The notes below the pieces were generated by a model, which saw nothing but the letters and a program-made list of their open reading frames with translations, did no database searches and had not been told where the DNA came from. Of a stretch of 64,000 nucleotides of DNA, positions 5,654 to 60,998 are shown in pieces. Origin of the DNA: Heptranchias perlo (taxonomy: Eukaryota); NCBI RefSeq assembly GCF_035084215.1, contig NC_090326.1, positions 18,600,001 to 18,664,000 of the forward strand. Reading direction: 5' to 3'. The stretch's first letter is position 1. The number at the start of each line of letters is the position of its first letter. Both the position numbers and the translations under genes were made by a program.

Positions 5654-5737
5654 GTTGAACGCAAACCAAATCACAGATGATGGAGTTCAAGTGTTAACTG
5701 AAGAACTTGCAAAGTACAAAATTGTTCAATTTCTTGG
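5654..5737 (+). CDS. NOD1: NOD1-like copy A, LRR exon 1 (LNANQITDDGVQVLTEELAKYKIVQFLG)
   Basis: 84 bp, flanked by cag and gtaag, phase 2-2. Matches recalled human NOD1 LSVNQITDGGVKVLSEELTKYKIVTYLG. Confidence 0.95.
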
Positions 5738-5949
5738 GTAAGTTATCAAGCTAAAAAGATATTTCAGATTCTATTCTTCCCTTGAATACTAGGGAACACT
5801 GAGACAGCTGGACAACTTATTGTGAACTGTGTATAGATATTTCCAATGTGTAATAAGTGTTTCAATAAAAGATGTTTACATTTCATTATATAGTGTGTAT
5901 ATTAATATGTATGATGTAGATGTTTTATTATATAATATATATATTTCTG

Positions 5950-6500
5950 TTCACTATGTATATCAATGATTTAGATGGAGACCTAAAGGGAGTGGTGTTG
6001 AAATCTGAAGATGATACCAAAATAGGAGATATAGACAATTCTTTAGGAGACCAAAGGAATCTGCAAAGAGATATTGATAAGATAGGTGAATGGGCTAATA
6101 AGTGGCAGATGGAATTCAATGTCATTAAAAACAATAACAGCAGTAATTATACTCTGAATGGAAGTAGGCACGGAGCTGTGGACAAGCAGAGGGATTTGGG
6201 GCACAGGTTCATAGGACATTGAAGGCGGCACCTCAGGTTGATAAGGCTGTTAAAAAAAGTGAATGGAATTCTAGGTTTTATCACAAGAAGTATAAAATAT
6301 AAAAACCAAGAGGTAATGATGAGCCTCTATAAAATCTTAATAAGAATTGAAATAGAGTGCTGTGTACAGTATTGGGCTCCACACTATAGGAAGGATACTG
6401 AGGCTTTGGAGCAGGTAGAATGCAGATTCACTGGGAGGCTGGCCTGGTATAAGGAAATATAAATATGAAGAAAGACTTTAAAATTAAGGCTTTTTTTGTG
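5950..6500 (+). mobile_element. Old, decayed CR1 LINE RT fragment
   Basis: YINDLD..K(S/F)EDDTKIG..LQRDID..WANKWQMEFNV and NGILGFI..CVQYWAP motifs, with frameshifts. Confidence 0.85.
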
Positions 6501-7117
6501 AGAATAATGCAGATATGATAGAAGATCTTGACCGCTTTTTTAACCACCATTAAAGGGGCACCGTCTTCATGGAAACATTTTTGGAAAACCTCTTTCTAAT
6601 TTTGGGAGGAACATAGCTGTGAATAATTCTTGCTGTGGGGGACAGCAAGTAGACACAACTTATGTTGTTTACAATATGTTTGCGACAGACTTATTTTCAC
6701 AAAGACTTGTATTTCCTTAAGAGATGTTTTTCAGTCTTCAAAATGGTGGATTATTATTTTGAATTCCAGTTCTACATCACCTTTGCTCCTTACTGGATAC
6801 AAAGGCATTTTCCTTTTACAGAATTCAGGAAAGGATACTTCATTAATTGAAGTTAATTAATAATCCCTTCAACTCTAAGAGCTATTTGAATTAACCTGGG
6901 CATTGGTTTTGAGGCCTGCTTGCCTCTGCGTTGCTTGTTAAGACTCTGACGTGACGATAGTTCTGGCTCCTTCAGCTGAGTTTATTTTAGATTAGAGTTG
7001 GCAATTATTCTATTACCACAACATGCTGTGGTGTGAAAGGCTACACAAAGCATGCAACTCTGCACTCTGTTAGAACATCTGTCCTCACATTACTACCTCA
7101 CCACTAGCTCAATGTAA

Positions 7118-7450
7118 CGAACAACAACAACTTGCATTTATATAGCACCTTTAACATAGTAAAACGTCCCAAGGTGCTTGTGCCATCAGACAAAATTTGA
7201 CACTGAGCCACATAAGGAGATATTAGCACAGGTGACCAAAAGCTTGGCCAAAGAGTTAGATTTTAAGGAGAGTCTTGAAGGAGGGGAGAGAGGCGGAGAG
7301 ATTTAGGGAGGGAATTCCAGAGCTTAGGGCCTAGAGGGCTGAAGGCACGGCCGCCAATGGTGGGGAACAGTAAGTGGGGAACGCACAAGAGACCAGAATT
7401 GGAGGAATGCACAGTTCTCGGAGGGCTTGAGAAGGTTACAGAGGTAGGTT
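7118..7450 (-). mobile_element. L2 LINE 3' fragment
   Basis: (AAC)n-TTGCATTTATATAGC terminus. Same family as 14345-14770, 34633-35060 and 53860-54405. Confidence 0.75.
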
Positions 7451-7585
7451 GCTTGTTCTGCAGTTACAGAGCTTGAAATGATCGATGATTTGAGTGATCT
7501 AGTTGCACATCACTGCTATATTTTCTCTGTGTGAGACCCCAATGTTTCCATCGTGTGACTTTTTTATTCGTATTTGTTTTTCCAG

Positions 7586-58618: not shown

Positions 58619-58702
58619 GTTGATTGAAAACAAGATAACAACCCATGGAGCTACGTATCTCCTCAACTCGCTCAGAGAAAACAACGCCATAGATGAGATC
58701 TG
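58619..58702 (+). CDS. NOD1: NOD1-like copy B, LRR exon 7 (LIENKITTHGATYLLNSLRENNAIDEIC)
   Basis: 84 bp, flanked by ttgcag and gtaag. Confidence 0.95.
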
Positions 58703-59489
58703 GTAAGGCAAAAATCTCAATCAGCATTTCTGTCGCGTTAGTGAGCGTTCAGTGGAATCCACTTGATACTGAATTTTAATCAAGTCACAAGGTCAGGCAG
58801 CTGGCAATTCTAGGTTATTTAACCAGGTTTCTCCCCTTTCTCTTGAAGCTATACAGACCCTTCAGGCACCTACCCAGTACCCCATCAACAGTCTTTATAT
58901 GTCAACCTATTCAGTGAATGTCGGCAGGCTATGTAATCAGAGGCAGGTATCAATGCCAAGCCAGATATCCTGGCCTCCTCCCAGTGTCCACACACTGGTC
59001 CTTTCCTAACCCAGGTTATTGCATCAAGATTAGGAGGAAGAACTGCCTCCCCAGCTCAGTGGCACTGACGCCAGTTGTAGCGTCCCCACTGCTACCCCGA
59101 CTGAATCACCTAATTTAACATAGCCTGACCGAGCCTTTGGTTCAGTGGTAGCATTCCCACCTCTGAGTCAGAGGGTGCAGGGTTTGATCCCTAATCCAGA
59201 CAGTCCAGGTGGGTGGAGACCGGAGCTCCGACTCTGAATTCTGGGCTGACATCCAGTGAGATTCTTGTGTCCGGTGGGTGTGGGTTTGGGTGCCCCCCCC
59301 CCACCTTCATCGTATGGGTTGTGGGAGCCTATAAAACCCACTGCTGTAGAGGAGAAACTCCCCTATTGGCTGGTGTAAAGATGGTTACAGCTATGGAAGG
59401 TATGTTCACGTTGCAGACTGCTAATCAGCCTGCAAATCCTTCCACTACTCCACACTGTTCTCCCAGGAAAGAATGTGAATATATAAGAT

Positions 59490-59770
59490 GGATTTCTTTC
59501 AGAAAATAATATTTTGGATACAGTATATGAAGACGACGTGGTAAGTGTAACATGCTTGGGAGGAACAGGTGACTTTGGACCTCTGGTTCCCAAAGCTGTC
59601 CACCACTGGGAGTTTACCTCATGTCTGGGTCTGTTGTAGACTAATTGATAGAGATTGATTGCTACGACTAGTCAACAACTCCATTATCATTGTATCATGT
59701 GACTACCAGGATGGTCAAAGGTGAACTAGATGGACCTTGGTCTTTTTTCATCTAGCAATTCCAATGTTCC
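59490..59770 (+). repeat. Interspersed repeat (probable CR1 3' UTR); second copy at ~47130-47430
   Basis: Both share GGTTCCCAAAGCT..CATGTCTGGGTCTGTTGTAGACTAATTGAT..CTAGATGGACCTTGGTCTTTTTTCATCTA. Confidence 0.7.
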
Positions 59771-60928
59771 TTTGAAAGCAGCACAGACTGGGAATTGAAC
59801 CTGGGACCTTCTGGTCTCTATAGATCAGTCACCCACTTCCTTTACTAACTGATCCATTGGATGAGCTCAGGAATTCTACATACAATCTATTATGAGCACT
59901 TCTCCTGTGACACATTTCTCAATCTCACTATACTGAACGACGATGAGATAGCTTTTCTATGCAGATATATAACTTTCACTTTGAAACCTGGTGTTACATT
60001 CTATTGAGATAATCTAATACAATAAAACATTTTTTGGCTTTTAAAACAATATTAAAAAATTACTGGGGTGGAGGGAAGGGAGATAGCAAGGAGGCACCAA
60101 TGAGTGGGACTCGGGAAGCTGTGTTCCAAGATCAACCGTTTCTGATCTGTCACTCAGCTTTAGAGGAATTGGTGATACTTCAGGCTAGAACCAAAGGAGA
60201 TGGGATTTCCGTCACACTTCTGGTAAAGTTATGGAGGTGTGTGGAGGTAAAGTTATGGAGAAAATGGGAAAAAAAGCAGAGTTTTATTTTGATGATTTTT
60301 CTCCTGGGTTGCTTGCTGCAGTGAGATTAATCTTCAATTCCTGGAGACTCCAGGACAATGCGGAGGGTCGGCGATCCTAATAATGATGTGATGCTTTGCT
60401 GGTTGCTGAGGCTGGAGCTGTCTGATCAGTCAGTGGTTGAGGTGATTGGAACTGTCGCACCTCAATACCAACAGGGGGAGAGGCACCTCGATTCACAAAG
60501 ATCAACACATCATATTCTGCAGTGTTCCTTTACTCCCTTGCCCCAACAGAACATTGGCCTATTTGTGCTTTCAGTTTGCAAATCTTCCTGCATGCACCAG
60601 TCTACAATTGAGAGTAGAAGCAGTGCAGACTGGCCGTAGACTGGATTTGGTCAGATCCGTGATCTCCGGTGGTTTGCAGAATCAGCTTTGGTTGGATCTG
60701 GTGCAGAACCCTTAAGGATCCAAGTGCCCTGGGAGCCAGTATAAATGTGACAATCAGTCACTACATTATCTTGTGTATGGTTGTTCGTTACCAGTGTTGG
60801 GATATTTTTCATCGTTTTATTAGATTTTTAAAAATGCTTCATGAGGGAAGTAAATCTAGTTCCTGGCACTTTTGGTCTATGAGAAAAGTAATAAATGCCA
60901 CTTGCGTAATCTGTTGTTTCTTTTTCAG

Positions 60929-60998
60929 CCTAAAGGATAATCGAATTCCGCCAGAAGATGCTTTGCAGCTTGTGAAAGACAAACGCATCGTCATCTAG
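60929..60998 (+). CDS. NOD1: NOD1-like copy B, terminal coding exon (LKDNRIPPEDALQLVKDKRIVI*)
   Basis: Strong acceptor tttttcag; 70 coding bp. The spliced CDS totals 2829 bp = 942 aa plus stop. Confidence 0.93.

Follow-up and report, generated by a model that had tools for sequence, protein, structure and literature searches.

In cartilaginous fishes, NOD1 is known to form a tandem array. Tan et al. (2021; PMC8455134) reported three NOD1 genes in the whale shark, which they attributed to tandem duplication in the chondrichthyan ancestor, and two in the elephant shark; the array was conserved in three more sharks and linked to MTURN, and a difference in specificity was proposed at E816. Analysis of 64,000 nucleotides of the Heptranchias perlo genome (the window; contig NC_090326.1, here C2, 18600001-18664000), extended by 200 kb fetched on either side (464 kb in all), revealed three intact tandem NOD1 genes on one contig, in the order Z, A and B, with copy B and the 3' part of copy A lying inside the window. 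As in the NOD1-A, -B and -C array of Tan et al., there are three tandem genes, and the middle gene is the one missing in the elephant shark; copy A probably corresponds to their NOD1-B, which is absent from Callorhinchus. The tandem order in that study was inferred from short contigs, whereas here the three genes are intact on one contig. A preliminary description of the window, made from the sequence alone, had proposed an old duplication giving this lineage a two-receptor NOD1 system, and had stated that a published description would make it less novel. There are in fact three copies, with Z located upstream of A, and the array is not special to this lineage, since the triplication has been published for other chondrichthyans (PMC8455134).

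Partial homogenization of receptor genes has been described in other families. The mammalian TLR1 and TLR6 genes (Kruithof et al. 2007, PMC2077338) are likewise tandem innate-receptor paralogs, in which a region of approximately 300 residues is homogenized independently in each species, with near-identical boundaries, while the ligand part diverges. However, the part shared by TLR1 and TLR6 comprises the C-terminal LRRs, the membrane span and the TIR effector, whereas the NOD1 array shares the central ATPase and diverges in the CARD and sensor; it also consists of three genes with nested tracts and covers a deeper time span. In the zebrafish NLR-B30.2 genes (bioRxiv 10.1101/022061), conversion homogenizes the NACHT, and a link to multimer assembly was speculated on by the authors, but these are hundreds of lineage-specific genes converted within groups, in contrast to three conserved genes of stable copy identity. 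The shark copies resemble human and mouse NOD1 (PMC3791470) and the NOD2 structure (PMC4906405) in their one CARD, NBD-HD1-WHD-HD2 order, 28-residue LRRs, Walker A/B motifs, WHD histidine, W820-G821-S846 and W874. The human and mouse genes are single copy with a pocket reported as largely invariant, which shark copy A breaks at K790, G818 and position 816. The triplication is known; conversion bounded by domains and a middle copy with a remodelled pocket, both described below, appear to be unreported. The main text of Tan et al. (PMC8455134) mentions no conversion, recombination, G818 or K790, and no published account of a mosaic or of core conversion in shark NOD1 was found in a search that had most subscription journals outside its coverage and returned Tan et al. 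as the sole work centred on the shark array.

Between Walker A and the end of HD1, a stretch of 210 residues, the proteins encoded by Z, A and B did not differ at all; for Z and A, the identical stretch extended to approximately 400 residues. The corresponding DNA, a 636-nt core comprising most of the NBD together with HD1 (copy B, window 43942-44577, plus strand; copy A, C2 18587882-18588517; copy Z, C2 18528190-18528825), had three differences between A and B and four between Z and B, all of them silent; the longer tract common to Z and A (1,185 nt; core and WHD) had three differences, again all silent. Silent-site difference in the core was 0.02-0.03 (3-4 of 138 sites), with no change at approximately 499 replacement sites. 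In the CARD, HD2 and LRR regions it was 0.41-0.78, which is near saturation, with a replacement difference of 0.17-0.35, and the signalling and sensing ends of the proteins differed by 30-50% between copies. The view that the copies are deeply diverged was therefore correct for the CARD, HD2 and LRRs, but not for the NACHT core, which is 100% identical in protein. Two shorter tracts were also observed: one in CARD exon 1, common to A and B (window 36532-36727, plus strand; 90% identity over 196 nt, of which 105 consecutive nt match throughout), and one in LRR exon 7, common to A and Z (window 10201-10363, plus strand; the exon and roughly 40 intron bases at either end, 94% identity over 163 nt, with 39 intron bases identical).

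Recent duplication was ruled out by the near-saturated silent sites and the unrelated introns. Purifying selection alone was ruled out by the silent-site identity of the core and by its ordinary conservation relative to bony-vertebrate NOD1 (61-66%, compared to 66-73% for the LRRs); since the core is the less conserved of the two, constraint alone cannot explain its identity between copies.

To compare species, trees were built from 46 sequences of 19 chondrichthyans (19 Z, 10 A and 17 B, including our three models) and seven bony-vertebrate NOD1s, taken from the best 120 of 559 matches, with one protein per gene and with other isoforms, congeners and most bird sequences left out; copies were labelled by their CARD/HD2/LRR identity. 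In the HD2+LRR tree, Z, A and B each formed one clade (support 100/99-100), which broadly followed the species. The core tree paired copies within species: Z with B in the chimaera (99/94), copies of Narcine (100/99), Amblyraja (97/87) and Pristis (98/89), Z with A in Heterodontus (99/91), and also the Heptranchias perlo copies. Monophyly of B in the core was rejected (p = 2e-42). Informative sites were counted in nine quartets, some of which share species, that did not include this genome (five Z/B and four Z/A). The ratio of sites grouping by species to those grouping by copy was 83:0 (Z/B) and 41:3 (Z/A) in the core, 16:35 and 56:0 in the WHD, and 6:158 and 3:93 in the LRRs. Of 17 species, six had a Z-B core identity of at least 96%, seven one of 88-92% and four, the carpet sharks, one of 82-83%. 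Thus, in several species paralogs were more alike than orthologs within a bounded tract, as expected of concerted evolution, with the signal for B being weak in the carpet sharks. The best 120 of 559 matches included no A-type protein from Callorhinchus or from any of six batoid species.

Copy A was also considered as an unequal-crossover hybrid, with the CARD of B and the C-terminus of Z, and this was not supported. The N-terminal tree grouped A with B (100/99) and rejected A+Z (p = 3e-5); in the C-terminal part, A+Z and A+B were not separated (p = 0.36), and shared-derived sites did not favour A+Z.

When the domain borders of rabbit NOD2 were mapped to copy B (NBD, residues 117-344; HD1, 345-404; WHD, 405-528; HD2, 529-666), the 3' end of the Z/B signal fell at about residue 405, the HD1/WHD hinge, and that of the Z/A signal at about residue 530, the WHD/HD2 border. 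In the model derived from the NOD2 structure, activation consists of WHD-HD2-LRR rotating against NBD-HD1, and a self-oligomerization surface was modelled on the NBD (PMC4906405). On this model, the shared part may be regarded as the engine and the private parts as the sensor arm and CARD. Taken together, the sequence comparisons make it probable that recurrent gene conversion overwrites the NBD-HD1 core while the CARD, HD2 and LRRs diverge, an arrangement predicted to place three sensors on one ATPase/oligomerization engine. Non-allelic conversion between neighbours would occur within the single long exon, and selection would remove conversions that reach either the CARD or the module for autoinhibition and ligand binding (HD2 and the LRRs). 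By extension from NOD1 and NOD2 biology, ligand would bind the concave LRR face, the WHD-HD2-LRR arm would swing off NBD-HD1 with exchange of ADP for ATP, and the cores would oligomerize, whereupon the CARDs would recruit RIPK2 and signal to NF-kB.

Several observations weigh against this interpretation. The 5' end of the tract, at about residue 145-160, lies inside the NBD and not at a domain border, and the tract ends coincide with fast-evolving linkers that could stop conversion without selection. In the carpet sharks, Z-B core identity is lower than the 90% identity of these sequences to the Z copy of this genome, which suggests that conversion of B is weak or has largely lapsed there. The clear separation of Z, A and B in the HD2+LRR tree is in part built in, since CARD/HD2/LRR identity also served to label the copies. 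Monophyly of A in the core was not rejected (p = 0.19). The sequences from other species are annotated proteins, some of them partial or mis-modelled; the silent-site homogenization was measured in the DNA of this genome.

An alternative is a neutral ratchet, in which conversion persists only because the NACHT exon is the single extended block of homology, and is halted by short exons and by linkers rich in indels; the shared core would then serve no selected function, and each of the three proteins would act on its own. We give this explanation somewhat less than an even chance. It accounts for the position of the long tracts in a 1.8-kb exon with their 3' ends in variable loops, for a 5' end away from any domain border, for the sporadic short tracts in CARD exon 1 and LRR exon 7, and for the intact genes of the carpet sharks, in which copy B has largely escaped conversion. 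It does not readily account for the two 3' end positions that recur in different lineages even though WHD and HD2 share that exon, nor for the WHD counts: this domain is converted in the Z/A comparison but for the most part not in Z/B, which indicates that the HD1/WHD loop does not act as a fixed barrier. The borders may be selected or may be a by-product of conversion-stopping linkers. The mosaic constitutes a natural domain-swap, with identical NBD-HD1 joined to different arms and CARDs, which can be used to localize ligand specificity and autoinhibition in NOD1, a receptor whose direct recognition of ligand is poorly resolved.

The dating of the duplications may be affected by the homogenized core. 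It is possible, though we consider it less likely than not, that at least one of the duplications took place before bony and cartilaginous fishes diverged, that bony vertebrates kept only the Z lineage, and that core conversion mimics chondrichthyan-specific copies. When the unconverted C-terminal part was rooted on NOD2, B and then A fell outside Z and bony NOD1; B was placed outside a group of A, Z and bony NOD1 with support of 99/97 under LG+G4 and 92/92 under C20, and addition of the CARD to HD2+LRR united Z with bony NOD1 (SH-aLRT 99). The converted core alone recovered a chondrichthyan clade at 97. However, such a clade was not rejected by the approximately unbiased (AU) test (p = 0.061 and 0.067), the full-length alignment did not discriminate (p = 0.56), and NOD2 is a distant outgroup, so that the long stems of A and B may be subject to long-branch pull. 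Earlier duplications are therefore hinted at by the unconverted regions, without significance. The published chondrichthyan date, which was derived from alignments that include the converted core (PMC8455134), stands but is less secure. NACHT-based trees, the usual means of NLR classification, misassign orthology at this locus and may misdate the duplication.

For the ligand pocket, positions follow human NOD1 and were aligned by means of the W820-G821 motif; S846, A848, W874, T876, W902 and C930 landed on the expected residues. The reported NOD1 pocket comprises H788, K790, G792, E816, G818, W820 and W874, with K790, G792, G818, W820 and W874 described as invariant and position 816 as only D or E (Boyle et al. 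2013, PMC3791470). Copy A exon 6 (window 8506-8589, plus strand) encodes Thr at K790 and His at E816 and carries the first two bases of a Trp codon at G818. Position 818 was W in all nine A sequences with data, and G in 16/16 Z, 16/16 B and 7/7 bony sequences; in the A sequences, position 790 was T or A (8/8) and position 816 was H, Q or Y (9/9). Copy Z keeps the canonical pocket (K/R790, G792, D/E816, G818, W820, W874), as does copy B, with K/R790 in 14 of 15 sequences. The canonical residues of the diaminopimelic acid (DAP) pocket are thus present in Z and B, and copy A deviates (T790, H816, W818). As the change in copy A is conserved, it is likely to be functional and not a sign of decay. 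On these residues, Z and B are likely to sense DAP-type peptidoglycan and copy A, with its remodelled pocket, is likely not to, which would make it NOD1 by descent and not by ligand; its conserved pocket predicts either a different ligand or a helper role. In the CARD, the acidic patch is E-D-x-E in A and B and E-E-x-E in 17 of 19 Z sequences (exon 1, C2 18518757-18519008); Asp54, which is Glu in most Z, was reported to be invariant elsewhere (PMC3791470).

Sensor-helper pairs are known from NAIP/NLRC4, and by analogy the core may have been selected so that the copies co-assemble in mixed oligomers, in which one would sense and the others amplify. We regard this as unlikely. What the copies have in common is the rigid NBD-HD1 module, which in NOD2 bears the modelled self-oligomerization surface (PMC4906405), the acidic RIPK2-binding patch (PMC3791470) is kept in all copies, and the RNA-like contigs of one sample hold both B-type and Z/A-type sequence. 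Against this, conversion yields identity whether or not it is useful. More doubtful still is a modular three-receptor NOD1 system of cartilaginous fishes in which conversion would keep the core interchangeable for mixed nodosomes, the middle copy retained in sharks (W818/H816 pocket) would sense a ligand that vertebrate NOD1 is not known to detect, and the array would perhaps date back to the ancestor of jawed vertebrates, bony vertebrates being down to one copy.

An assembly or polishing artefact, in which reads of one copy overwrote the others, might be suspected from the annotated A protein of Stegostoma (P0167), which is flagged as low quality and matches its own Z at 210/210 residues, and the short reads possibly came from the assembled individual and would then be no independent sample, but this explanation was rejected as most improbable on the private silent changes of the three copies, on the recurrence of the pattern in chimaera, ray and shark genomes that were annotated separately, each with residues of its own species, and on read depth. 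A 640-nt contig of a DNA run (window 43940-44579) covers exactly the core at approximately 2.7 times the flanking depth (35.6, compared to 12.1-14.9 for the other seven contigs listed from this run), which is what a collapse of three near-identical copies would produce.

The identity of the three genes was established by domain content and phylogeny. Pfam analysis of P0001 (B), P0010 (Z) and P0011 (an A isoform) found in each one CARD stretch, NACHT, NOD2_WH, NLRC4_HD2 and LRRs. In a tree with NOD2 and four further NLR exons from the Heptranchias perlo genome, the three copies grouped with bony-vertebrate NOD1 (100/99), and together with bony NOD1 were separated from eight NOD2 sequences (100/100). 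Walker A/B, sensor and WHD histidine motifs were identical in Z, A and B, and H583 of rabbit NOD2 maps to His in B. The possibility that one copy is NOD2 was ruled out by the trees and by the separate NOD2 gene on C18, which has two CARD stretches. A genome search with the copy B NACHT exon (73 of 322 candidates scored) gave matches of 100, 75 and 74% on C2, the next being on C18 at 36%, and no NOD1 copy beyond Z, A and B was found within the 464 kb.

Gene models were built by hand, with the LRR exons located by a scan for 84-bp exons. Copies A and B each have 11 coding exons on the plus strand, including seven 84-bp phase-2 LRR exons and a 70-bp last exon, all with AG/GT splice sites; the products, of 932 (A) and 942 (B) residues, have no internal stop, nor does that of the intact Z gene (961 residues). 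Exons 1-3 of copy A (CARD, CARD, NACHT; C2 18583000-18583185, 18587284-18587458 and 18587679-18589458) lie 10-17 kb upstream of the window. The part in the window, a spliced model at 5654-22018, comprises exons 4-7 (5654-5737, 7586-7669, 8506-8589, 10240-10323) and 8-11 (12169-12252, 13353-13436, 17701-17784, 21949-22018). Copy B (36538-60998; CARD-NBD-HD1-WHD-HD2-LRR) comprises exons 1-3 (36538-36723, 41384-41558, 43739-45548), 4-7 (46061-46144, 49232-49315, 49423-49506, 51544-51627) and 8-11 (54503-54586, 56730-56813, 58619-58702, 60929-60998). The coding exons of copy Z (C2 18518757-18576937) lie entirely upstream of the window. Database protein P0001, which carries the label NOD1-like of Heptranchias perlo, matches the copy B model in full, and Z is contained in P0010.

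Much of the preliminary description was borne out by these models. The matching LRR exon layout, canonical splicing and absence of stops in A and B were reproduced by the exon scan and spliced models; A and B agree at exactly 127 of their C-terminal 218 residues, the count originally made by hand; the single CARD of copy B was recovered by Pfam; and the 5' part of copy A, with its CARD and NACHT exons, was retrieved intact. The introns are unrelated as claimed, with no blastn match in 8 of 10 A/B pairs and one short internal match in each of the other two (71 nt and 283 nt), both likely to be dispersed repeats; the 40 bases beside each A/B splice site agree at 9-17 positions. Assignment of both copies to NOD1 and not NOD2 agreed with the trees. 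An old duplication kept by selection was likewise corroborated, each copy having orthologues across sharks, and Z and B also across rays and chimaera, with pN well below pS outside the converted tracts. Splicing of copy B was seen in RNA-like contigs: one contig of run X5 joins exons 1, 2 and 3 over introns of 4.7 and 2.2 kb, the RNA status of runs X5 and X6 being a guess, with no listed run recorded as RNA. A second X5 contig had 11 differences, the number expected for copy Z, and an X6 contig that lacked both Z-private alleles and carried Z/A alleles gave a weak hint of copy A reads.

Several repeats were noted in and between the genes. A GT-rich satellite of approximately 4.1 kb (20/42-bp period; window 1-4119) lies in the 16-kb intron 3 of copy A, and two young minisatellites lie in other introns of this gene, at 12925-13325 (36-bp unit, 11 copies, 97% match, one frame open) and 16322-16919 (31-bp unit, 19 copies). 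Between A and B there is a near full-length long interspersed nuclear element (LINE; 30779-33928) with frameshifted endonuclease and reverse-transcriptase frames, the 3' 968 nt of which are 98% identical to a copy approximately 0.5 kb upstream of the first coding exon of copy A; such repeats could promote mispairing of neighbouring genes. Transposase-like frames, presumably of the Harbinger type, lie beside a reverse-transcriptase fragment on the minus strand (25186-27443), and a tandem repeat of approximately 3 kb lies between copies Z and A (C2 18577962-18580891).

Exons of the MTURN family (PF15167) were found at C2 18.916-18.945 Mb, approximately 255 kb past copy B. For the CTH-like neighbour reported by Tan et al., the four matches among nine candidates scored were all on C9, and none of 10 candidates matched the GGCT family. 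Elsewhere in the genome, dozens of NACHT matches of 25-29% with long open frames were observed on unplaced contigs among the 73 of 322 candidates scored (including C1317, C1338, C1349, C1370, C1403, C1445, C1477, C1488 and C1521), and these represent a large separate NLR expansion.

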